Below are positions 19,048-30,620 of a DNA stretch of 64,000 bases, in pieces. The first letter of the stretch is position 1; each line of letters starts with the position of its first letter. The DNA comes from Parcubacteria bacterium C7867-001. Its GTDB lineage: Bacteria > Patescibacteriota > Minisyncoccia > Phycocordibacterales > Phycocordibacteraceae. Location: the NCBI GenBank assembly GCA_001189095.1, contig LFCK01000001.1:253159-317158 (forward strand), given 5' to 3'. The notes beneath the pieces are model-generated. The model was given only the letters and a program-made list of their open reading frames with translations. It had not been told where the DNA came from and made no database searches. The translations under genes were made by a program, and so were the position numbers.

Positions 19048-21882
19048 ATGGGGAAGACGGGCTACGATCACAAAGCACTAGAGAAAGCCGCTCGGGAGAA
19101 ATGGGCGGAGCGTAATCTCTACGTCACTGACCTTACGGACGAATCGAAGGAGCCGTATTACCTCCTGTTCGAATTCCCGTACCCTTCTGGCGACCTCCAT
19201 ATTGGACACTGGTTCGCATTCGGGGTGACCGATATCTTTGCGCGCCTAAAGCGCATGCAAGGGAAGAACGTTCTTTTCCCTATCGGGTTCGACGCGTTCG
19301 GTCTTCCGGCAGAGAACGCGGCGATAAAGTTCGGTAAGGATCCGAAAGAGTGGACGGTCGCAAATATGGAGCGCATGACCGAGCAGTTGAAATCGATCGG
19401 TCTTTCAGTTGACTGGAGTAAGCGCATCGCCTCATGCGAACCCAAGTACTATCACTGGACCCAGTGGCTTTTCCAGAAATTCTACGAGCAGGGCCTCGCT
19501 GAGCGTCGCAACGCGCCGGTGAAGTGGTGTCCGAAGGATCAGACCGTGCTCGCGAACGAGCAGGTCGTGAATGGTGCTTGCGAACGCTGTGGCACGGAGG
19601 TCGAGGAGAAGAACCTCACACAGTGGTTCCTCAAGATTACGCAGTACGCTGAACGTCTTCTCGCAGATCTCGAGCCGCTCCCATGGCTTGAAGAAATAAA
19701 GGAGGCGCAGCGCCAGTGGATCGGAAAATCGGAGGGAGCAAAGCTGTGGTTCACCATAGAAGGAAGCGAGGAGGCTATTGAGGTATTTACGACTCGTCCA
19801 GACACGCTGTATGGCGCGACCTATGTCGTGCTCGCACCTGAGCACCCGCTCGTCAGTGCGCTTCCGGCTACAAATCGTGCAGAAGTTGATGCGTATGTTG
19901 CGCAAACGAAGCTTAAAACTGAGCGCGAACGACAGGAAAACAAAGACAAGACTGGCGTTCGGCTTGAGGGTATTACTGCCGTTAATCCCGTAACCAAGGA
20001 GTTGATTCCTGTTTTTGCAGCCGACTACGTGCTCGCAACCTACGGTACGGGCGCGGTTATGGCGGTTCCTGCGCACGACGAACGCGATTTCGCTTTCGCA
20101 AAGAAATACGATCTACCGATACGCTACGTTGTTGCACCAAAAATGATCGACACAGGAAATCCTCCTCAGGACGGGAAGCGTGTGGTGAAGCGCTACTCCA
20201 TTCTTGCGGTCGTGCACGATCCAAAGACCAAAAAATATCTTTCACTCAAATGGAAGGAGCAGGGTTGGACTACCTTCATAACCGGAGGTATCGACGCGGA
20301 TGAAGATGTTGTGGAGGCGGCGAAGCGGGAGATTCTCGAAGAAACCGGCTACAAGAATCTAAAATTCATACGCCGACTCGGCGGTCCGGTCTGGGCGGAA
20401 TTCTTCGCTGCTCACAAAGACGAGAATCGCATTGCAATAAACAGTCCGCTTCTCTTCGAGCTTGAAAACGACGAGCGCGATCCGGTTGCTCAAGCGGAAT
20501 TGGATCAGCATGAAGCGCACTGGCTCGATTTGAAAGAAATTGCTGCTGAGAAAATGCGTCATGCCGAAATAGAACAAATACTTTCACACCTCGACGGAGA
20601 GGATGGTGCCTACACCGGAGACGGCATGCTCATAAATTCAGAAGCATTCGATGGACGCGAGAACCGCGAAGCGTTGTGGGATATCGTCACGGCTGCGGAC
20701 GGCGAGAAGACGACCAACTACCGTATCCGTGACTGGCTGGTGAGTCGCCAGAGGTACTGGGGCTGCCCGATTCCGGTCGTCTACGACCCTGAGGGTAAGG
20801 TGCATCTTGTGCCAGCTGAGCATTTGCCGTGGCTCCTACCTGAGGATGTCGATTTCAAGCCGACTGGCGAAGCGCCACTCGCGTCCTCCAAAGAGTTAAA
20901 GGAGCGTGTGACGCGTATCTTCGGCGAAGGATGGACCCCCGAATACGATACACTCGACACCTTCGTTGATTCATCGTGGTACTACACGCGCTATCTTGCA
21001 GCAGATGATGATACGCAGTTCTCAAATTTTTCGTTGATGAAAAGATGGCTTCCCGTGCAGCGGTACTCAGGCGGAAGCGAGCACACCACGATGCATCTTC
21101 TGTATGCCCGATTCTTCCATAAAGCACTCTACGACCTCGCTCTTGTTCCAACGCCGGAACCATTCCATGAGCGTTTCAACCGGGCAATTATTCTTGGACC
21201 GGACGGCAATAAGATGAGCAAATCGAAGGGGAACGTGATTAACCCTGACGATATTGTCGAGAAATATGGAGCTGACGCAGTGCGCATGTATCTCGCGTTC
21301 ATTGGTCCCTACAACGAAGCGGGACACTATCCGTGGAGTCTCGATGGTGTACCAGCGATGCGTCGCTTCCTCGAGCGAGTGACCAAGCTTGTTCCGAATT
21401 TGAAGGAGGGTAGTGCCACTGAGGCGGAACGAAAGGCTCTTGCGAAAGCGACGGTGAAAGTTGCGGACGATTCCGAGCGCTTCAAGTTCAACACCGCAGT
21501 ATCAGGACTTATGGTGTGCCTTAACGAACTTGAAGCCTCCAAGAGTTGTAGCAAAGAAGCGTTCGTCGAGTTCGTAAAACTCCTTGCTCCATTCGCGCCG
21601 CATCTTACGGAGCAGCTCTGGGAAGCGGTCGGACAAGCAGGCAGCGTGCATGAAGCGCTCTGGCCGGCTGCCGACCCAAGTCTTCTGACGGAAGATACGG
21701 TCACGGTGGTCGTTCAGGTAGCAGGGAAGAAGCGGGGAGAGGTCATGCTGGCGCCAACAGCCTCAGAAGAAGAGGCACTTAAGGCTGCGCAGTCGATTCC
21801 CACCGTAGCGGAACTCCTCGCGCAGGGCACCCCAAAACGGGTGGTCTACGTGAGCGGCAAAATCCTCAATATCGTCCCCTAG
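19048..21882 (+). CDS. leuS: leucyl-tRNA synthetase with an inserted Nudix hydrolase domain
   Basis: HIGH (PYPSGDLHIGHWFAF) and KMSKS (GNKMSKSKGNVI) motifs. 944 aa, versus ~800-870 for a typical bacterial LeuRS. Confidence 0.95.
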   Translation: MGKTGYDHKALEKAAREKWAERNLYVTDLTDESKEPYYLLFEFPYPSGDLHIGHWFAFGVTDIFARLKRMQGKNVLFPIGFDAFGLPAENAAIKFGKDPKEWTVANMERMTEQLKSIGLSVDWSKRIASCEPKYYHWTQWLFQKFYEQGLAERRNAPVKWCPKDQTVLANEQVVNGACERCGTEVEEKNLTQWFLKITQYAERLLADLEPLPWLEEIKEAQRQWIGKSEGAKLWFTIEGSEEAIEVFTTRPDTLYGATYVVLAPEHPLVSALPATNRAEVDAYVAQTKLKTERERQENKDKTGVRLEGITAVNPVTKELIPVFAADYVLATYGTGAVMAVPAHDERDFAFAKKYDLPIRYVVAPKMIDTGNPPQDGKRVVKRYSILAVVHDPKTKKYLSLKWKEQGWTTFITGGIDADEDVVEAAKREILEETGYKNLKFIRRLGGPVWAEFFAAHKDENRIAINSPLLFELENDERDPVAQAELDQHEAHWLDLKEIAAEKMRHAEIEQILSHLDGEDGAYTGDGMLINSEAFDGRENREALWDIVTAADGEKTTNYRIRDWLVSRQRYWGCPIPVVYDPEGKVHLVPAEHLPWLLPEDVDFKPTGEAPLASSKELKERVTRIFGEGWTPEYDTLDTFVDSSWYYTRYLAADDDTQFSNFSLMKRWLPVQRYSGGSEHTTMHLLYARFFHKALYDLALVPTPEPFHERFNRAIILGPDGNKMSKSKGNVINPDDIVEKYGADAVRMYLAFIGPYNEAGHYPWSLDGVPAMRRFLERVTKLVPNLKEGSATEAERKALAKATVKVADDSERFKFNTAVSGLMVCLNELEASKSCSKEAFVEFVKLLAPFAPHLTEQLWEAVGQAGSVHEALWPAADPSLLTEDTVTVVVQVAGKKRGEVMLAPTASEEEALKAAQSIPTVAELLAQGTPKRVVYVSGKILNIVP

Positions 21883-21945: not shown

Positions 21946-23019
21946 ATGCCTACTAAAGCTAAAAAAACCACTGCCGTGCGCGGAGCGTCGAAAATCGCGA
22001 AGCTCTCGTTCGATGATGCTGTCCTCGTAAAGCGTATGCTTACCGAGGTTTCCGACCGCGCCAAGGAGGTTCTTACCCTCCGCTTTGGCCTTGGCACTTC
22101 GCAGAAGCGCGAGACGCTTGAGGCTATCGGCGAACGCTGGGGTATTACCCGCGAGCGCGTCCGCCAGATTGAGGCAGCAGGTATCGAATCTATCCGCTCA
22201 AGCAAGGCTTTCAAGGATTCAACGGCTCCACTTGCCGAACTCTCCAACTACGTCGAATCGCTCGGCGTTATCGTCCGTGAAGAAGAGCTTCTCGCCGGCC
22301 TTGGCGCTGACGAGAAGACGCGCAACCGTTTCCGCTTCCTCCTTGTTGTGGGCAGTACCTTTTATCGCGAACGCGAAACAGATGATTTCTACGCACGCTG
22401 GCACGTTGATCACAAGACCGCAGACCGTGTTCACAAGGCACTTTCTTCGCTTTACGGCTCACTCTCCGATTCTGAAGTGCTTTCCGAAAGCGAACTCTTC
22501 AACCGTTTTCTCGACGAACTCAAGGAAGTAAACGAAGTCTATAAGAACGAGGAAATCATGAAGCGTTGGCTCGCACTCAGTAAGACGATCTCAGCAAATC
22601 CGCTCGCAGAATGGGGTCGCTCGGAAGCTGCAGGCATCAAGACCAAAGGTATCCGCGATTACGCGTACCTCGTGGTTAAGCGCGCAGGAAAGCCGATGCA
22701 CTTCACCGATGTCGCTGGCGCCATTGTCGATCTCTTCTCCAAGAATGCGCACGTCGCAACGACTCACAACGAACTCATGAAGGACCCTCGCTTCGTGCTC
22801 GTCGGCCGTGGTCTCTACGCGCTCGCAGAATGGGGCTACAGTCCGGGCGTCGTTCGCGATGTTATTCGCGACATTCTCAAGAAGAAGCCGCTCACTAAGG
22901 ACGAGCTTCTCGAAGAGGTGAAGAAAGTGCGCTACGTGAAGGACAACACGATCCTCGTGAATCTCAACGACTCCCGCTACTTCAAGAAAAATAAGAACGG
23001 CACTTACTCAGCCGCATAA
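21946..23019 (+). CDS. sigma-70 region 4 domain + C-terminal HARE-HTH domain protein
   Basis: N-terminus VLTLRFGLGTSQKRETLEAIGERWGITRERVRQIEAAGI matches sigma-70 region 4; the C-terminal KPMHFTDVAGAI...RFVLVGRGLYALAEWGY fits HARE-HTH. Confidence 0.7.
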   Translation: MPTKAKKTTAVRGASKIAKLSFDDAVLVKRMLTEVSDRAKEVLTLRFGLGTSQKRETLEAIGERWGITRERVRQIEAAGIESIRSSKAFKDSTAPLAELSNYVESLGVIVREEELLAGLGADEKTRNRFRFLLVVGSTFYRERETDDFYARWHVDHKTADRVHKALSSLYGSLSDSEVLSESELFNRFLDELKEVNEVYKNEEIMKRWLALSKTISANPLAEWGRSEAAGIKTKGIRDYAYLVVKRAGKPMHFTDVAGAIVDLFSKNAHVATTHNELMKDPRFVLVGRGLYALAEWGYSPGVVRDVIRDILKKKPLTKDELLEEVKKVRYVKDNTILVNLNDSRYFKKNKNGTYSAA

Positions 23020-23105: not shown

Positions 23106-24521
23106 GTGATTCTCGAAATGCGATATCTCACGGGGTATACTCTTCCTATGTCATCGGCGAGTCCGTATCCGCTCTACGACTGGAGCACGAAGCTCATTAA
23201 GGAAGCCCGCAAATCGGCCGGTCTCGTGCTGTCGGGTGAAATGTTCTGCGTCATCTACAGTGCCCTTATCTTTATTTTCTTCCTCTTTGCGCCAGCGCAA
23301 TCAGTGCAGAACTTTGAGGTGCTGATTTTCCTCTCGCCGCTCTGGTTGCCGTTTATGGTTATGGGCTTTGCGCGCGAAAAACGCCTCGAGCTTGCGCGGG
23401 CACTTTTCCATGTCACCCAGAAGAAGATTTTGCTCGAGCTGCGCGTTCCGCGCGACACACGTAAATCGCCGCAGGCGATGGAAACCTTCTTCACGAACCT
23501 CGCGCTCGCTCCGGGGGAATCAACGTGGTACAAGCGCATGATTCAAGGTCGCACGCGCCCATGGTGGTCGCTCGAGCTCGTTTCGACTGAAGGCGAAGTA
23601 CATTTCTATATTTGGACATGGGAAATCTGGCGCCGTCCGCTCGAAAGCTTCCTCTATGCGCAGTACCCCGGTGCTGAACTCATCGAAGCCACTGACTACA
23701 GCCGCCTTATCGATCCGAGTCACGAACCAAACAAGATGTGGACGGTCGAATACGCGTTCGCCGAACCCGATGCGTTCCCGATTAATTCCTACATTGACTT
23801 CGGACTTGAGAAAAATCCAAAACCAGAAGAGCAGGTTGACCCAATCGCGCAGGTTATTGAGGTGCTCAACAGCATTGGTAAAGGCGAACACATTTGGATA
23901 CAGATCATGATTCAAGGCGATAACGCGAAGAGTCCTAAGTTTGCAGGAAGAATGAACAAGAAAGGGAAGCCATACACCATCATTGACGAGGGTGAAGAGA
24001 CTATCGAAAAAATTCGCCGAAACGCGATGATGCAGTACGAGGAAGTGGACTCGATGGGCAAGAAGATAAAGAAGACACTCACGAACCCGACCAAGGGCCA
24101 GCTCGACATGATCTCCGACATTAGCCGAAAGATTTACAAGCCATGCTACGACGTTGGTATGCGCGCGATTTACTTCGCTGACAAGGAGCACTTCAAGGGA
24201 ACGACGCCGGGGGCTGTCGGTAGCATTTGGAAACCGTTTGGCGGTGCGAACAAAATTGGTGACGTTGGCGGGAGCAATGATTTCTTCGGATACCCTTGGG
24301 AGGATCCGGGTCGGAAGCGCGAAGCACACATGGAGCATCATGCGCTCCTCTCCTACCGCCGCCGTGCGTATTTTTACCCGCCGTGCGTGGGCACGTACAT
24401 GATCATGAGCGCTGAAGAGCTCGCCACAATCTTCCATATCCCATCGAGTACCGTAGCGTCAGGAGGCTTCACGCGCATCCAGAGCGCAACCTCAGGGGCG
24501 CCGGGCAATCTTCCGACGTAA
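23106..24521 (+). CDS. hypothetical membrane-anchored protein (471 aa; 2 N-terminal TMs + large soluble domain)
   Basis: Long protein-like ORF. The true start may be ATG 23148 (MSSASPYP), which would place the 16-bp inverted repeat upstream. Confidence 0.55.
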   Translation: MILEMRYLTGYTLPMSSASPYPLYDWSTKLIKEARKSAGLVLSGEMFCVIYSALIFIFFLFAPAQSVQNFEVLIFLSPLWLPFMVMGFAREKRLELARALFHVTQKKILLELRVPRDTRKSPQAMETFFTNLALAPGESTWYKRMIQGRTRPWWSLELVSTEGEVHFYIWTWEIWRRPLESFLYAQYPGAELIEATDYSRLIDPSHEPNKMWTVEYAFAEPDAFPINSYIDFGLEKNPKPEEQVDPIAQVIEVLNSIGKGEHIWIQIMIQGDNAKSPKFAGRMNKKGKPYTIIDEGEETIEKIRRNAMMQYEEVDSMGKKIKKTLTNPTKGQLDMISDISRKIYKPCYDVGMRAIYFADKEHFKGTTPGAVGSIWKPFGGANKIGDVGGSNDFFGYPWEDPGRKREAHMEHHALLSYRRRAYFYPPCVGTYMIMSAEELATIFHIPSSTVASGGFTRIQSATSGAPGNLPT

Positions 24522-26115: not shown

Positions 26116-27159
26116 ATGCATGTCAATACCTCCCTTCAGGGAACCAAGATATTCGTCGGCCTTTCGGGCGGCGTAGACTCCGCTGTTACTGCAGCGCTTT
26201 TGCAGCGTGCGGGTGCCTCAGTGACCGGCGTTTTCATCAAAGGTTGGTATCCGGAAGGACTCCCGTGCACGTGGGCTGCCGACCGTCGCGACGCGATGCG
26301 TGTTGCAGCCCATCTCCATATACCGTTCGTTACGCTCGATGCTTCGAAGGAATACAAGCAAGGCGTTATAGACTATCTTCTGCGCGAATATCGAAACGGT
26401 CGGACACCAAACCCCGACATCATGTGCAACAAGGAAGTTAAGTTCGGTGCGTTCTTTGATTTTGCGATGAAGAATGGTGCGGACTATATAGCAACGGGCC
26501 ACTACGCGCGCGTAACGCACGAAGAGGACGCATCGCTCAAGCGCGGCGTTGACCCAAAGAAGGATCAAAGCTATTTCTTGTGGGCCATCCGACCAGAAGC
26601 GCTTCAAAAAACGCTTTTTCCGCTCGGCGGATTTGAGAAGCCGCACGTACGCAAACTAGCGCAGGAATTCAGTCTTCCCGTGAAAGAGAAGGCTGACAGC
26701 CAAGGTATTTGCTTCCTCGGTTCTATTTCAGTAGATGACTTCCTTCGCAATGAATTCGGTACGCGCACCGGCAAAATAGTTTCAACGGAGGGTGTGGAGG
26801 TCGGGGAACATGACAGCGTCTTGCTTTCAACTATCGGCCAGCGCATAAGCGCGCCGAACGGGCCGTGGTACGTCGTTCGGAAGGATATCGAGAAGAACGA
26901 ACTTATCGTTTCGCATGAGCACGGAGAAAAAAGCTCGGAGGCTATCGGCCTAGAGAACGTGAACTGGTTCAAAGAACCAAAATCGGATGAGACGCTTATC
27001 GCGCAGTACCGCTATCACGGCCCGATGATCATGGGAACGTATGACGCAGCTCGCGCCGTCTTTCAACCGAGCGCGCCTATGGACGAAGTGCCTGCAAGCG
27101 GTCAATCGCTCGTGCTGTATCAAGGAGATGTCTGTAGTGGAGGTGGTATTATTTCGTAA
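26116..27159 (+). CDS. mnmA: tRNA-specific 2-thiouridylase MnmA
   Basis: PP-loop FVGLSGGVDSAV, catalytic Cys context, 347 aa. Confidence 0.9.
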   Translation: MHVNTSLQGTKIFVGLSGGVDSAVTAALLQRAGASVTGVFIKGWYPEGLPCTWAADRRDAMRVAAHLHIPFVTLDASKEYKQGVIDYLLREYRNGRTPNPDIMCNKEVKFGAFFDFAMKNGADYIATGHYARVTHEEDASLKRGVDPKKDQSYFLWAIRPEALQKTLFPLGGFEKPHVRKLAQEFSLPVKEKADSQGICFLGSISVDDFLRNEFGTRTGKIVSTEGVEVGEHDSVLLSTIGQRISAPNGPWYVVRKDIEKNELIVSHEHGEKSSEAIGLENVNWFKEPKSDETLIAQYRYHGPMIMGTYDAARAVFQPSAPMDEVPASGQSLVLYQGDVCSGGGIIS

Positions 27160-28002
27160 ATGAATGCACGCAGCACTCCGGTCATCGTTAAAGCGGACGG
27201 CACCGTAGAGGCGTTCGATCCTGCAAAACTTGAAAGCTCGCTTCGACGCGCAGGCGCAGGCGACGCAACGGCGAAGCGCATCCGCACCACCATCGAAGCT
27301 TCGATGGTTAAAGGTGCTTCGACCAAAGAGATTTACACCCGTGCGTTCGCGATGCTCCGACATGAAGCGCGTCCCGTCGCCGCTCGCTACAGCCTTCGTC
27401 GAGCGCTTTTTGAATTCGGACCATCGGGACACCCCTTTGAAGATTTCGTCGCGGAACTTTTCAAGGCAGAGGGCTGGAACGTTGAGTGGCGCAAGATGAT
27501 TGGAGGGAAATGCATTTCGCACGAGGTCGATATCTATGCGACTCGGAACGGCGAATATTTAGGAGCCGAGTTGAAGTATCACAACGATCCGAACTACAAA
27601 ACGGACGTGAAAGTGGCGCTCTACGTGAAAGCTCGTTTCGATGACATATGGCAGTGCGACCCGAAGGTAAATAACAAATGTCCTGTCGACCACGGCATGC
27701 TCATTACCAACACCAAATTCACCTCGCAAGCAGTCGAATACGCCCGCTGTGCTGGCATTGAGCTCCTCGGCTGGAGCTATCCGCTGGAAGGGAATCTCTA
27801 TGACCGCATCGTTGCAGCCGGTATATACCCCATTACGGCCCTCACCAGCCTCCGAAAGGCTGAAAAACGCATGCTTATCGACGCGGGTATCGTGACCTGC
27901 AACCAGCTCAAAGACCGTCGTGACGAGCTCAGGAAGCTTTCCGTGACGCCTGAACGGGTAGGCGTTATAGTTACAGAAAGCGAGAACCTCTGCGCACAGT
28001 GA
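27160..28002 (+). CDS. ATP-cone domain + Mrr-like (restriction endonuclease-fold) nuclease domain protein
   Basis: N-terminus VIVKADGTVEAFDPAKLESSLRRAG fits an ATP-cone. The central FEDFVAELFKAEGWNVEW...HEVDIYATRNGEYLGAELKYH fits the Mrr_cat PD-(D/E)xK core. Start overlaps the mnmA stop (TAAATG). Confidence 0.65.
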   Translation: MNARSTPVIVKADGTVEAFDPAKLESSLRRAGAGDATAKRIRTTIEASMVKGASTKEIYTRAFAMLRHEARPVAARYSLRRALFEFGPSGHPFEDFVAELFKAEGWNVEWRKMIGGKCISHEVDIYATRNGEYLGAELKYHNDPNYKTDVKVALYVKARFDDIWQCDPKVNNKCPVDHGMLITNTKFTSQAVEYARCAGIELLGWSYPLEGNLYDRIVAAGIYPITALTSLRKAEKRMLIDAGIVTCNQLKDRRDELRKLSVTPERVGVIVTESENLCAQ

Positions 28003-28029
28003 TATCTGGGAGTGAGGTTATGAACAATC

Positions 28030-28554
28030 ATGAAAACCTCATCCAACACACAGCTTATGAAAGTCGAGTCCAAGAAGCGTAATCCTTTTTTCTGGGGAGT
28101 CCTCGGATTTATTGTCGGCATTGGTGCTGCAGGCATCTGGCTTCTCGGAAATTACATCCCTGAATTTTCGCTTCCAGATACCGATTCGACCGCATCGACA
28201 ACGATGACGCCCGACGGCGAACTTCCTCCAGCAAGCAATCTTATTTCCGTTGAAGATCAAAACGCCGGAACGGAAGTCATTGTGCAGAAGCTCGATGTTC
28301 CATCGCCGGGTGTATGGGCTGCAGTTCAGGAGCGAAACGGCGGGAAGCTGGGTAATGTTCTCGGCGCAGCACGCGTGACCGCTCCGGACACTGGCGTCGC
28401 TATCCCTCTTTTGCGCGCTACCGAGCCGGCGCACTCCTATGCAGTTGTTCTGTATCGAAACGACAACGGCGGGGACTTCGCGTTCGATAAGAACAGTGTG
28501 TATGTCGATTACGATACGGGGGACCGTGTGGTCGCACCGTTCAGCACCAAATAA
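28030..28554 (+). CDS. hypothetical membrane-anchored protein (174 aa)
   Basis: RBS GGGAGTGAGG; N-terminal TM; extracytoplasmic domain. Confidence 0.5.
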   Translation: MKTSSNTQLMKVESKKRNPFFWGVLGFIVGIGAAGIWLLGNYIPEFSLPDTDSTASTTMTPDGELPPASNLISVEDQNAGTEVIVQKLDVPSPGVWAAVQERNGGKLGNVLGAARVTAPDTGVAIPLLRATEPAHSYAVVLYRNDNGGDFAFDKNSVYVDYDTGDRVVAPFSTK

Positions 28555-28556
28555 TC

Positions 28557-29345
28557 ATGGCTGGCTGGAAATCAAAAACATTCGACCCGTCGTCGAAAGA
28601 ACCCTTCACCATTAGCCGCTCCAAGGTGGACATGTTCACCGAGTGCCCGCGCTGCTCGTATCTCGACCTGCGTCTTGGCGTAAAGCGTCCCTCGATGCCG
28701 GGATTTACGCTCAATATGGCGGTGGACGAGCTTTTCAAACGCGAATTCGATGTGCACCGTGCGAACGGCACTACGCATCCCTTGATGAAAGCGTATGGGC
28801 TCAATGCGGTACCGATGAAAGATGATCGCATGGACGAGTGGCGAGACGCGCTCAAGCGCGGCATAAAATTCCATCACACGGAATCGAATTTCATACTACG
28901 CGGCGGTATCGACGATGCGTGGATGTCCGCGGACGGTGAAGTTATTGTGGTTGACTACAAAGCGACCAGTAAAAAAGTGGGACCGACGACTGAAGACGAC
29001 CTCTACGATTCCTACAAGAAGCAAATGGCGGTGTATCAATGGCTCTTTCGCCAGAACGGATTCAAAGTGTCGCCGACCGGCTATTTCGTGTACGCGAACG
29101 GTGAATCGGACAAAGAAGCGTTCGACGCGAAGCTCGAGTTCAGCATCGTCCTCATCCCGTACGCAGGTTCGGACTCATGGGTCGCTCCGACGCTCATGAA
29201 GATGCGCGAGACGCTCTCAAGCGATGAGATTCCTGACTACGGTCGCGGAACCGCCTTCGGCGGCAAGGATTGCGAATATTGCACCTACCGCGACGGAGCT
29301 GGAAACGCGTTCAAACAGCTTGTTGCTGAAAGAAAAAAGAAATAA
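28557..29345 (+). CDS. PD-(D/E)xK nuclease family protein, Cas4/RecB-like with four cysteines
   Basis: GGIDDAW...VVDYKATS is a D...D/ExK core. N-terminal CPRC and C-terminal CEYC resemble the Fe-S cysteine arrangement of Cas4/AddB-type nucleases. Confidence 0.6.
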   Translation: MAGWKSKTFDPSSKEPFTISRSKVDMFTECPRCSYLDLRLGVKRPSMPGFTLNMAVDELFKREFDVHRANGTTHPLMKAYGLNAVPMKDDRMDEWRDALKRGIKFHHTESNFILRGGIDDAWMSADGEVIVVDYKATSKKVGPTTEDDLYDSYKKQMAVYQWLFRQNGFKVSPTGYFVYANGESDKEAFDAKLEFSIVLIPYAGSDSWVAPTLMKMRETLSSDEIPDYGRGTAFGGKDCEYCTYRDGAGNAFKQLVAERKKK

Positions 29346-29347
29346 CC

Positions 29348-29611
29348 GTGAACAGCTTCGCAGAAAAAGTGCGTGCGGTTGTACGGAAAATTCCCAAGGG
29401 AAAGACGATGACGTATGGCGCTGTTGCGAAAGCCGCGGGACGCACCGGCGCAGCACGCGCCGTCGGAACTATCATGAGCCACAACGACGACACAACAGTT
29501 CCATGCCATCGCGTTGTCCGCTCGGATGGGAAGCGCAGCGGCTATAACGGCCTCATGGGCGTGAGCCGCGAAGCCATCCTCGCGAAAGAGCGAGCCGAGC
29601 TCGCGGCATAA
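29348..29611 (+). CDS. methylated-DNA-protein-cysteine methyltransferase DNA-binding domain protein (Ogt C-terminal domain only, PCHR cysteine retained)
   Basis: GTG start; TYGAVAKAAG...AARAVGTIMSHN...VPCHRVV matches the MGMT active-site domain. Confidence 0.7.
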   Translation: MNSFAEKVRAVVRKIPKGKTMTYGAVAKAAGRTGAARAVGTIMSHNDDTTVPCHRVVRSDGKRSGYNGLMGVSREAILAKERAELAA

Positions 29612-29680
29612 GTTACGCACCTCGCGCGATTGCGCCCTTTCGTACAGGATTCATACTTACGCTCAGAAAGGAGGTCCTTC

Positions 29681-29806
29681 ATGCCTAAGGATCCCGTTGG
29701 TGAATACGTTCGCCTTATGTACCAACTTTCTTCCATCTGGTGGAATATGTGGCTCTCGCCTCATGAAAGCTATGGCCATTATCATCACCTGTGGAGGAAG
29801 CTTTGA
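29681..29806 (+). CDS. small Trp/His-rich peptide (41 aa)
   Basis: Perfect SD GAAAGGAGG 5 nt upstream of ATG; MPKDPVGEYVRLMYQLSSIWWNMWLSPHESYGHYHHLWRKL; a 24-aa hydrophobic mini-ORF (29826-29900) and a terminator follow. Confidence 0.4.
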   Translation: MPKDPVGEYVRLMYQLSSIWWNMWLSPHESYGHYHHLWRKL

Positions 29807-29898
29807 TCAGTGGTGAACGGGTACTGATGCTGTACCGCATCGCCCTCCTCGCTCTCGCACTCTCGCTCCGCGCTCTTTTGAGCACGTGCGTGCATGCG

Positions 29899-29930
29899 TA
29901 AAGCCGCGCGAAGAATCGCGCGGTTTTGCT
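29899..29930 (+). terminator. intrinsic terminator
   Basis: aaagccgcgcgaagaatcgcgcggttttgct. Confidence 0.6.
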
Positions 29931-29951
29931 ATTGTCGATATACTCATAGCC

Positions 29952-30620
29952 ATGGAAGTGAAAATAGAAGCTTCGTGGAAAGAGAAGCTTAAAGGCGAGT
30001 TCGAAAAACCGTATTTCAAGGAGCTCACGGAGTTCGTGAAAGACGAATATGCGAGTGCGACGGTATATCCGCCGCCGAAATTCATTTTTTGCGCGTTTGA
30101 ACTTTGTCCGTTCGACAGCGTGAAAGTGATTATCCTTGGTCAGGATCCGTACCACGGAACGGGTCAAGCGAACGGCCTCTCCTTTGCGGTGAATGACGGC
30201 GTGCGACTGCCGCCGTCGCTTCAGAATATTTACAAAGAAATAGAGAACGACATCGGCTCAACACCAAATCAAAGCGGCGACCTCTCCCGTTGGGCAAAAC
30301 AGGGAGTACTTCTTTTGAATGCAACGCTCACGGTGCGTGCGGCAACTCCCGGCTCGCATCAAAACAAAGGTTGGGAGCAGTTCACGGACGCCGTGATTCG
30401 TGCACTTTCCGACGAACGCGAAGGACTCGTCTTTATACTTTGGGGGAACTACGCACGAAACAAAGGTGCACATATCGATCGCAGCAAGCATCTCGTTATT
30501 GAATCCCCACACCCATCACCCTTTTCTGCATACAACGGATTCTTCGGCTCAAAACCGTTCAGTACGGCCAACACATACCTCGAACAAAACAAGCAAACGC
30601 CTATAGACTGGCTATCTTAA
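29952..30620 (+). CDS. ung: uracil-DNA glycosylase (family 1)
   Basis: GQDPYH water-activating motif and HPSPFS; 222 aa. Confidence 0.9.
   Translation: MEVKIEASWKEKLKGEFEKPYFKELTEFVKDEYASATVYPPPKFIFCAFELCPFDSVKVIILGQDPYHGTGQANGLSFAVNDGVRLPPSLQNIYKEIENDIGSTPNQSGDLSRWAKQGVLLLNATLTVRAATPGSHQNKGWEQFTDAVIRALSDEREGLVFILWGNYARNKGAHIDRSKHLVIESPHPSPFSAYNGFFGSKPFSTANTYLEQNKQTPIDWLS

Follow-up and report, generated by a model that had tools for sequence, protein, structure and literature searches.

The genome of Parcubacteria bacterium C7867-001 carries, between mnmA and ung, a row of four genes (here g1 to g4), at least two of which look like nuclease genes. The question raised by this row is whether the four products work together, as a nucleotide-sensing DNA repair or defence module proposed when only the letters of the DNA had been inspected (the sequence-only reading), or whether they are neighbours by descent. 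The locus was analysed within a window of 64 kb, the whole stretch of DNA under study, and was compared with two sets of loci: 80 close loci from related genomes and 80 distant loci in which a g1 homolog occurs.

The gene row and its products

According to the ORF list, all four genes lie on the forward strand, as do the remaining features described below: g1 at 27160-28002 (280 aa), g2 at 28030-28554 (174 aa), g3 at 28557-29345 (262 aa) and g4 at 29348-29611 (87 aa, with a GTG start). The same four products were obtained from independent public gene calls. Upstream, the domain search located mnmA (26125-27159), encoding a tRNA 2-thiouridylase, the stop of which abuts the start of g1 (0 bp); the following gaps are 27 bp (g1-g2), 2 bp (g2-g3) and 2 bp (g3-g4). 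The description of four co-directional, tightly packed genes with mnmA upstream and ung downstream agreed with these coordinates exactly. The gene for family-1 uracil-DNA glycosylase, ung (29952-30620; domain search and public gene calls), has its homology-supported start at 29952, which leaves a 340-bp spacer after g4. This spacer holds a 41-codon ORF (29681-29806), preceded at a distance of 7 nt by a GGAGG Shine-Dalgarno sequence, and, just before the ung start, a terminator-like hairpin read from the sequence (CCGCGCG-AAGAAT-CGCGCGG followed by TTTT, 29904-29927). The small ORF, called by one public gene caller, is genome-specific and of low confidence, with no homolog in the 160 loci and no Pfam match. 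The hairpin was present in both MFE and centroid folds. The spacer RNA had a fold z-score of -3.1, with no Rfam match and no conservation, and a consensus scan for operon boundaries gave nothing above shuffle expectation and did not report the hairpin. We consider that ung is probably transcribed on its own. The antisense ORFs of the region, which had no family support, were discarded as spurious.

The g1 product is 100% identical to ABA06_01610 of the same bacterium. HMM, PDB and fold searches all supported its proposed architecture, an ATP-cone fused to an Mrr-type catalytic domain. The ATP-cone (aa 8-82, positions 27181-27405) matched PF03477 with 33.4 bits (gathering cut-off 25.8, E 6.6e-8), and Mrr_cat (PF04471) was matched with 29 bits for a cut-off of 21. 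A nuclease core (aa ~96-205, 27445-27774) was delimited from the match to PDB 1Y88, Foldseek and invariant columns, and it is followed by a C-terminal helical domain of the AF1548-like_C type (aa 223-276, 27826-27987), with a sub-threshold match to PF22357 (E 0.0037) that aligns to AF1548 residues ~140-194. As a single sequence, the cone gave only chance matches against the PDB and the family profile was needed; the N-terminal part of this profile aligned onto the ATP-cones of NrdR (E 0.02) and RNR, and Foldseek gave weak matches of the N-terminal domain to RNR cones. In the one AlphaFold model out of five that was confident (pLDDT 82, the others 55-64, with unreliable inter-domain geometry), the predicted cone consists of strands 8-10 and 16-18 and helices 21-30, 35-48 and 55-85. 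Residues K11, G14 and K23 show little or no variation in the family alignments. The canonical ATP-cone motif is K-R-D-G, and the Arg that follows the first Lys in NrdR and RNR cones is missing from the family motif K-[A/S/T]-x-G (K-A-D-G in g1), so that nucleotide binding is only predicted; ATP or dNTP sensing by this domain is plausible. In the nuclease core, H121-E122-x-D124 ... E137-x-K139 and the cysteines C118 and C197 are invariant in both family alignments, and the D...(D/E)-x-K catalytic triad (D124, E137, K139) is intact. The catalytic motif and the cone Lys and Gly residues remain invariant down to 30-40% identity. By fold, the nuclease half resembles AF1548 first, then Mrr/MspJI-type enzymes and the ligand-gated nucleases Can2 and Card1. 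The domain search found no DNA-modification reader domain in g1.

The third product had been taken for a Cas4/RecB-like nuclease with four cysteines, of which the RecB part stood. It matched PDDEXK_1 (PF12705) with 41.5 bits (cut-off 22, E 1.9e-10), its motifs D119/D120, D133-Y-K135 and Q156..Y160 are invariant, and its top structural matches were AdnA, RecE, Cas4 and EXO5 (TM 0.35-0.5). The four cysteines are also there, but in a 2+2 layout (C30-x2-C33 and C239-x2-C242) that is shared by 72 of 84 orthologs, the canonical C-terminal triple being found in only 4; in Cas4 the Fe-S pattern is C...C-x2-C-x5-C (1+3). Moreover, the Cas4 model TIGR00372 gave 36.3 bits for an equivalog cut-off of 65, and no cas genes lie nearby. 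That there is no CRISPR in the vicinity had been correctly stated, since no array was found in the 64-kb window and the neighbours of g3 are mnmA, g1, g2, g4 and ung. Score, cysteine pattern and context led us to reject Cas4 and to keep g3 as a RecB-family nuclease, which shares with the Fe-S members of the family (Cas4, EXO5, AddB-AdnA) the D, D-x-K and QxxxY motifs along with four conserved cysteines. It would be a metal-cluster nuclease of the Cas4/EXO5/AddB type, most likely a 5'-3' end-processing exonuclease.

The hydrophobic segment behind the description of g2 as membrane-anchored is present (aa ~20-40). The product is a single-pass membrane protein with a DUF7282-like, beta-rich domain (24.9 bits, just under the cut-off of 27) and is probably an extracytoplasmic protein unrelated to its neighbours. 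The reading of g4 as an 87-aa MGMT-domain protein retaining PCHR was confirmed by PF01035 (88.9 bits, E 1.9e-25). TIGR00589 was also matched (68.3 bits, cut-off 46.4), and the score stayed under equivalog cut-offs (NF007626, 56.8 vs 192). PCHR is found in 46 of 47 orthologs, most of them 84-91 aa long. The protein aligns to the catalytic C-terminal domain of Ogt and Ada-C (E 2e-13 for Mtb OGT and 8e-13 for Ada-C) and retains PCHR as well as the Tyr, Arg, Asn and Glu positions, but it lacks the N-terminal domain and covers just residues ~76-154 of Mtb OGT. ATLs carry Trp or Ala in place of the reactive Cys; g4 is a single domain like Atl1 and YbaZ but keeps this Cys, and the ATL assignment was rejected. 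It is probably a minimal, cysteine-retaining O6-alkylguanine alkyltransferase domain.

Probable inheritance of the block around g1

The four genes are part of a ~12 kb block with the order leuS, a sigma-like gene, an unknown gene, mltG, mnmA, g1, g2, g3, g4, ung and alaS, which is collinear as a whole in the close loci and consists of core translation genes (ychF is also among these) and cell-wall genes. The idea that the four genes are co-conserved held for g1 and g3, adjacent in 75 of the 80 close loci, but the whole block is collinear as well, and g2 and g4 are facultative (14 and 41 of 80, respectively, with g2 also in 7 distant block-type loci). In Parcubacteria g1 has its most constant neighbour in mnmA, found next to it in 79/80 close loci and 9 distant block-type loci; ung accompanies it in 74/80 close loci and in none of the 80 distant ones. 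Three close loci (L012, L016, L039) lack g3 but have g1. Among the distant loci co-conservation broke down, as around 70 of the 80 carry the g1 homolog with none of g2, g3, g4, mnmA or ung within 10 kb; in the remaining ~10, where such genes are retained, leuS, the sigma-like gene, mltG and alaS are retained too, and g1 and g3 are adjacent in 8 of these loci. The part of the block that persists best is mnmA-g1-(g2)-g3, and because it does so even in distant Parcubacteria, g1 and g3 may be genuinely coupled in function. Median identity across the close loci was 69.5% for g1, compared with 62% for LeuRS, 74% for AlaRS, 61% for MnmA and 73% for Ung, which places the conservation of g1 at the level of the aminoacyl-tRNA synthetases.

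In our view this is probably an inherited co-directional housekeeping stretch, in which g1 would be an ATP/dATP-gated turnover or salvage nuclease with ordinary repair neighbours, and not a mobile or self-contained module. The four genes would have been passed down vertically in the core gene array of this reduced-genome member of the Parcubacteria (CPR). The ATP-cone of RNR and NrdR changes their oligomeric state; that of g1 most likely binds ATP/dATP with a similar shift, which would switch the AF1548/Mrr-type PD-(D/E)xK nuclease on or off. We infer from this that the most likely role of g1 is a controlled nucleic-acid turnover that feeds nucleotide salvage and is gated by the adenine-nucleotide pool, while g3, g4 and ung, which removes uracil, would act as ordinary DNA-maintenance enzymes. 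The gene cluster as such matters little, and g1 is the part worth attention. The cluster does show that a tightly packed, nuclease-rich row of a CPR genome can reflect an inherited order of housekeeping genes.

Gene contexts of the g1 family and alternative functions

The g1 family is large and uncharacterised. When clustered at 50% identity it comprises at least 1,098 clusters, nearly all of them full-length at 275-290 aa, so that an architecture of ~280 aa is fixed across the family; relatives were found in no fewer than 581 species-representative genomes, and Parcubacteria, Bacteroidota and Chlamydiota all have members. None of the curated NCBIfam models matches g1, and neither a description of an ATP-cone/nuclease fusion nor an experimental study of the family was found in the literature. 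In Pontibacter (Bacteroidota) and Criblamydia (Chlamydiota) the homolog is the first gene of a four-gene cassette, followed by an MBL/beta-CASP hydrolase, a thymidine-phosphorylase (TP)-family protein and a ribose-phosphate pyrophosphokinase (PRS). The partners also occur, with the g1 homolog as first gene, in ~17 distant metagenome loci; within the distant set of 80, a beta-CASP gene lies beside the g1 homolog in 14 loci, a TP-family gene in 7 and PRS in 4, and the loci with such partners span several diverged clusters. The beta-CASP partner is of the RNase TTHA0252 type (E 8e-75) and the TP-family partner of the AMP-phosphorylase type (4GA5, E 8e-93, versus 1e-36 for true TP/PyNP). Considered at the level of the family, the gene context points to nucleic-acid or nucleotide catabolism and salvage, rather than to repair or defence. 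None of the three partners is present within the window or in the 80 Parcubacteria loci; as the cassette is missing there, a salvage role in this organism is an extrapolation.

Parcubacteria are thought to depend on nucleotide salvage, and the cassette allows a broader, tentative proposal, possible although we would not expect it to hold: the g1 family could be made up of unrecognised adenine-nucleotide-gated nucleases, switched allosterically by the ATP-cone, that sense the energy charge and carry out the committed first step in breaking down nucleic acid, probably RNA. Across many phyla g1 would feed a beta-CASP exonuclease and AMP-phosphorylase-type and PRPP-synthetase-like enzymes, and in Parcubacteria g3 would have taken the place of the beta-CASP enzyme by non-orthologous displacement, to give a g1-g3 core salvage pair.

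The same contexts bear on whether g1 is an ATP-gated nuclease directed to RNA, acting in tRNA/rRNA turnover or quality control, and not a DNase. The product of its constant upstream partner, with abutting stop and start, modifies tRNA, many genes of the block serve translation (leuS, alaS, ychF), and the commonest partner elsewhere is a TTHA0252-type RMMBL/beta-CASP ribonuclease, followed by an NMP (AMP) phosphorylase-type enzyme, in a pathway that consumes ribonucleotides. However, the closest folds are the DNA endonucleases MspJI, AspBHI, Hjc and EndoMS, plus AF1548, which has no assigned function; the C-terminal helical domain of g1 resembles DNA-binding modules, and the adjacency to mnmA may just be inherited gene order. 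We regard this function as unlikely.

More doubtful still is an integrated nucleotide-sensing DNA-repair operon, in which g1 would sense dNTP/ATP and nick damaged DNA, g3 would resect, and g4 and ung would remove O6-alkyl lesions and uracil, respectively, in a single co-regulated pathway. Gaps of 0-27 bp do suggest co-transcription of mnmA-g1-g2-g3-g4, g1 and g3 are adjacent in both sets of loci, and g3, g4 and ung all belong to DNA-maintenance families. Nevertheless, g4 is absent from half of the loci and g2 from most, g3 can be missing where g1 is kept, and ung is unlinked in the distant loci and separated here by a spacer with a terminator-like hairpin. The tRNA synthetases and mltG are equally syntenic, and in other phyla the partners of g1 homologs are genes of RNA and nucleotide catabolism and not repair genes. 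The sequence-only reading is supported only in part: its domain assignments stood, but neither the proposed repair module nor the defence module was sustained by these results. In the latter, g1 would be a type IV (Mrr-like) nuclease licensed by the change in the nucleotide pool during infection, with a Cas4-like accessory nuclease. Defence systems often contain Mrr_cat and Cas4-like domains, PADLOC gave weak matches to the ZorD nuclease domain and to Cas4 models, and MspJI, AspBHI, Can2, Card1 and Cdn1 are among the structural neighbours of g1. Yet the PADLOC matches were to generic nuclease domains only, with no match to a system; no relatives were found in IMG/VR, no match for g1 or g3 among 50,697 GenBank phage records, none for g1 in PHROG, and just 2 and 1 matches (g1/g3 searches) in 72,556 plasmid records. 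No CRISPR or cas genes accompany g1, there are no integrases or transposases in the block around it, GC is flat (0.51-0.57), and across the clade the gene is near-universal, with ~70% identity. We rejected g1 both as a type IV restriction system, given the lack of a reader domain, a PADLOC system and phage copies, and as a patchy or mobile defence gene, being a core gene in at least 581 species with a housekeeping context. The anti-phage reading, largely refuted by this distribution, is highly improbable, and it illustrates that Mrr and Cas4-like domains are not to be taken as defence without distribution data. Equally improbable is that g1 is a non-catalytic, nucleotide-responsive DNA-binding regulator reusing the nuclease fold: an ATP-cone joined to a nucleic-acid-binding domain follows the logic of NrdR, with whose cones the N-terminus of the family profile aligns best, but the invariance of H-E-x-D...E-x-K down to 30% identity argues for retained catalysis, and neither a repeated operator-like motif near g1 nor direct repeats were found.

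Relation of g1 to known systems

The gated turnover nuclease that we favour for g1 can be set against several known systems. Can2, Card1 and Cdn1 also place a sensor (CARF/SAVED) N-terminal to a nuclease of restriction-endonuclease fold, and show weak structural similarity to g1 in the nuclease half; their sensor has a different fold, with cyclic oligoadenylates as ligand instead of the presumed ATP/dATP, and they are CRISPR or CBASS defence effectors, while g1 is a core chromosomal gene without defence context. A closer relative of the nuclease half is AF1548 of Archaeoglobus fulgidus (PDB 1Y88), with which g1 aa 96-276 align (E 1.9e-25; family profile, E 7.6e-50; Foldseek E 2.9e-15, TM 0.74). 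It has no ATP-cone, and the g1 clade adds a Cys-containing loop (C166, C174). The predicted catalytic residues of AF1548, D38/E51/K53, match the D/E-x-K residues of g1, and the protein was named just as a predicted restriction endonuclease (PMC1821046).

With regard to gene context, a trio of MBL, PRS and TP-family genes, bll3115-3117, is induced by microoxia in Bradyrhizobium (PMC6515984). In other phyla a g1 homolog heads such a cassette, whereas the g1 locus studied here has the RecB-type g3 downstream instead of the beta-CASP enzyme. Finally, the N-terminal ~80 aa of g1 align with the ATP-cones of NrdR and RNR and share their logic, an adenine-nucleotide sensor fused to an effector, although the effector is a PD-(D/E)xK nuclease, where those proteins have a Zn-ribbon DNA binder or a reductase. 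If the cone of g1 does gate its nuclease, cone allostery would extend from ribonucleotide reduction and NrdR to the degradation of nucleic acids, and it would offer a handle on the control of nucleotide recycling in nucleotide-auxotrophic CPR and in stressed or hypoxic bacteria of other phyla.

Gene order around g1-g4 and its conservation

The row lies on the + strand and comprises g1 (27160-28002, 280 aa), g2 (28030-28554, 174 aa), g3 (28557-29345, 262 aa) and g4 (29348-29611, 87 aa), with gaps, counted from the mnmA stop onward, of 0, 27, 2 and 2 bp. The sequence-only reading had described four co-directional, tightly packed ORFs, an observation that is correct according to both the ORF listing and independent public gene calls, which give the same four products; its domain reading was also good, since the assignments for g1-g4 were all upheld in HMM searches. 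The + strand codes for nearly all of the 64-kb window, so that tight co-directional packing is the rule in this genome rather than a peculiarity of these four genes. Gaps of 0-27 bp suggest co-transcription from mnmA, or from further upstream, through g4. The start of ung backed by homology is at 29952, which leaves a 340-nt spacer after g4 (29612-29951). Two features lie on its + strand: a 41-codon ORF at 29681-29806, preceded by a strong GGAGG Shine-Dalgarno motif, and at 29904-29927 a hairpin resembling a terminator (a perfect 7-bp GC stem, then TTTT). The spacer folds better than its own shuffles (z = -3.1); Rfam gave no match for it, and none of the 160 related loci conserves it. A consensus promoter and terminator scan gave nothing exceeding chance, tRNA and Rfam searches of the window returned zero matches, and antisense ORFs in the region were discarded as they had no family support.

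A scan of GTDB with one genome per species identified at least 581 genomes with a relative of g1. The close set, consisting of the best 80 loci of those at least 581 genomes (60-75% identical, all from Parcubacteria/Paceibacteria-type MAGs), was searched with the proteins of the window, neighbourhood sampling being anchored on g1. The mnmA gene was directly upstream of g1 in 79/80 of these loci, and g3 was downstream of it in 75/80; ung was present in 74/80, g4 in 41/80 and g2 in 14/80. A 471-aa protein without Pfam match (68/80), a sigma70-r4/HARE-HTH protein (65/80), AlaRS (64/80) and LeuRS (46/80) were found as well, the entire block of around 12 kb being equally collinear and made up of core housekeeping genes. 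Loci lacking g3 while keeping g1 were L012, L016 (g4 directly after g1) and L039 (ung directly after g1). Median identity in the close loci was 69.5% for g1 versus 62% for LeuRS and 74% for AlaRS, i.e. g1 is conserved at the level of aminoacyl-tRNA synthetases.

The distant set comprised 80 metagenome loci with around 40% identity to g1. In about 70 of them g2, g3, g4, mnmA and ung were all absent from the 10 kb on either side of the g1 homolog; ung was linked to it in 0/80. The approximately ten distant loci with an mnmA-g1-g2-g3(-g4) arrangement also keep leuS, the sigma-like gene, the unknown gene, mltG and alaS. The linkage of g1-g4 is therefore the gene order inherited in one lineage, and not that of an independently maintained or mobile module. 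Judged by co-conservation in other genomes, the yardstick that the sequence-only reading itself had set, the proposal that the four genes constitute a nucleotide-sensing DNA repair or defence module is only weakly supported: they are collinear in the close loci, but the housekeeping genes of the block share that collinearity and the linkage is absent in most distant loci.

Several products of the block have features of their own. The LeuRS gene (19048-21882, + strand, 944 aa) has an insertion unusual for a leucyl-tRNA synthetase: immediately behind the editing domain (aa 222-367) comes a NUDIX domain (PF00293, aa 382-506, E 2.7e-13). The protein with Sigma70 region 4 and HARE-HTH domains (21946-23019, + strand, 357 aa) shows around 70% identity across the close loci where it occurs. 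The gene of the 471-aa protein (23106-24521, + strand), directly upstream of mltG/yceG, is also kept in 6 distant Parcubacteria loci and appears to be a lineage-core gene.

The evidence goes against the defence part of the proposal. PADLOC gave generic nuclease-domain similarities only (the ZorD C-terminal nuclease, E 0.002, and Cas4 models), no relatives of g1 were found in IMG/VR, and neither g1 nor g3 matched any of 50,697 phage records, while 72,556 plasmids yielded two matches for g1 and one for g3. The window has no CRISPR or tandem arrays, and GC content stays between 0.48 and 0.57 across the region, with no compositional anomaly. These searches, along with the core-gene distribution, make a defence role very unlikely. 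In place of a module, the row is best described as an inherited housekeeping order that includes a predicted ATP-cone-gated AF1548-type nuclease, a RecB/Cas4-like nuclease whose 2+2 cysteine layout is unusual, a candidate minimal alkyltransferase and an unrelated membrane protein. The cluster itself is of modest interest, and only its g1 family deserves work at the bench.

The ATP-cone nuclease family and its cassette in other phyla

The g1 product corresponds to ABA06_01610 of Parcubacteria bacterium C7867-001 (100% identity). In HMM searches its ATP-cone scored 33.4 bits (cut-off 25.8) and its Mrr_cat domain 29 bits (cut-off 21), with a sub-threshold match to an AF1548-like C-terminal domain. 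Homology to AF1548 (PDB 1Y88) covers residues 96-276 (E 1.9e-25, or 7.6e-50 with the family profile); AF1548 is a structural-genomics protein for which a restriction-type endonuclease activity, with D38/E51/K53 as catalytic residues, has been predicted (PMC1821046). The AlphaFold model of g1 (mean pLDDT 81.9, only one of five models being that confident) superposes on 1Y88 (E 2.9e-15, TM 0.74), followed by the nuclease domains of Mrr, MspJI and AspBHI and the ligand-gated nucleases Can2, Card1 and Cdn1. Ribonucleotide reductase (RNR) ATP-cones were weak structural matches, while in the family profile the N-terminus lines up precisely with the cones of NrdR (E ~0.02) and of RNRs of classes I and III.

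The family is large, with a rigid architecture. Word-indexed searching gave 3,728 hits; an exhaustive search gave at least 1,098 clusters (50% identity), of which 414 had E<=1e-30, and nearly all were full-length (275-290 aa) down to 35% identity. At 30-40% identity the invariant positions are K11 and G14 in the cone, the linker G-P-x-G-x-P-F-E, and H121-E122-x-D124, E137-x-K139, C118 and C197 in the nuclease domain. A purely regulatory, non-catalytic role for g1 is argued against by this invariance of the catalytic residues even among such distant relatives, which indicates selection on the nuclease site. No NCBIfam model, PHROG or paper covering the ATP-cone/AF1548-nuclease fusion was found. 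As judged from sequence, g1 would be an uncharacterised, widespread AF1548-type nuclease, predicted to be gated by its ATP-cone. In the Parcubacteria clade two further cysteines, C166 and C174, are invariant in a loop missing from AF1548; on top of the family-wide C118/C197 pair, they might form a metal site or disulphides.

Both plasmid matches of g1 belong to annotated genomes of different phyla. Each shows one and the same cassette, opened by the g1 homolog and continued by genes for an MBL-fold hydrolase, a thymidine-phosphorylase-family protein and a ribose-phosphate pyrophosphokinase (Pontibacter actiniarum, Bacteroidota, L161 1972-6597; Criblamydia sequanensis, Chlamydiota, L162 6995-11602). 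The Criblamydia cassette is flanked by genes for a P-type ATPase, phosphoketolase, glycogen phosphorylase and acetate kinase. The cassette was also present at the distant loci L097, L113, L118 and L130. De novo clustering of neighbours in the distant set identified an MBL/beta-CASP/RMMBL protein as the commonest one; adjacent to the g1 homolog were beta-CASP (14/80), thymidine-phosphorylase-family (7) and PRPP-synthetase-like (PRS-like; 4) proteins, in several diverged sub-clusters. For the beta-CASP partner the best match was ribonuclease TTHA0252 (E 8e-75). The 'thymidine phosphorylase' matches PDB 4GA4/5/6 with E 8e-93, whereas true thymidine and pyrimidine-nucleoside phosphorylases reach ~1e-36, and 4GA6 is an AMP phosphorylase (bioRxiv 10.1101/2021.02.22.432383). 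A contiguous MBL, PRS and thymidine-phosphorylase-family trio, bll3115-3117, is induced by microoxia in Bradyrhizobium diazoefficiens (PMC6515984). In six distant loci a protein of around 84 aa ending in CCGGH, without Pfam match, is encoded between the ATP-cone nuclease and beta-CASP genes (for instance at L112 3534-3788, position +1 after the g1 homolog).

The context of the g1 family is thus one of catabolism or salvage leading from nucleic acid to NMP and on to ribose-bisphosphate-type products, probably under energy stress, and it would be physiologically sensible for the nuclease that opens such a route to sense adenine nucleotides. Across phyla the cassette looks like an uncharacterised RNA/NMP catabolic module tied to energy stress. 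Its partners (beta-CASP, AMP-phosphorylase-type and PRS-like) are all absent from the window and from the 80 Parcubacteria loci, and a salvage role in C7867-001 is therefore one that we infer by analogy. Such a role would suit CPR bacteria, which depend on nucleotide salvage.

Comparison of g2, g3 and g4 with known families

With its hydrophobic segment at around aa 20-40 and a near-threshold DUF7282 match, g2 is a membrane protein of the single-pass type whose ectodomain is beta-rich and DUF7282-like. Among the close loci it is confined to one subclade, and it is also found in distant loci of the block type; nothing was found connecting it to nucleic acids.

HMM searches assign the g3 product to PDDEXK_1. 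Its relatives at E<=1e-3 number 6,487, and the nearest carry the automatic annotation 'PD-(D/E)XK nuclease family protein' or 'Cas4 (RecB family)'. Its confident model (pLDDT 85, pTM 0.84) matches the folds of the AdnA nuclease domain, RecE, Cas4 (I-G, I-C, SSO0001), human EXO5 and ACE1 with TM 0.35-0.5. Four cysteines are invariant, as are D119/D120, D133-Y-K135 and Q156...Y160. Whereas Cas4 has a canonical C-terminal C-x2-C-x5-C, found in just 4/84 orthologous matches of g3, the layout here is 2+2 (C30-x2-C33, C239-x2-C242) in 72/84, the rest being mostly truncated. This pattern, the score of 36 bits against the Cas4 equivalog of NCBIfam (cut-off 65) and the context rule out Cas4; g3 is a divergent RecB-family nuclease and probably a metal-cluster binder. 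Its sole plasmid homolog (L163 5962-6966, Flagellatimonas centrodinii, 44% identity) neighbours a large protein related to helicases within a run of short hypothetical genes, in phage- or mobile-element-like surroundings very unlike the Parcubacteria context.

Human AGT loses its activity when reduced to the C-terminal domain. The g4 product contains the MGMT DNA_binding_1 domain (E 1.9e-25), surpasses only the generic ogt domain model of NCBIfam, and aligns solely to the catalytic C-terminal domain of Mycobacterium tuberculosis OGT (E 2e-13) and Ada-C, with weaker matches to 2KIF and 3GVA, which are single-domain ATLs. The PCHR motif is present in 46/47 orthologs, and as most of these are 84-91 aa long, the stand-alone form is the norm of the clade and not a truncation artefact. 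We consider g4 a candidate minimal alkyltransferase, which, although single-domain like the ATLs, retains the reactive cysteine that is replaced in them.
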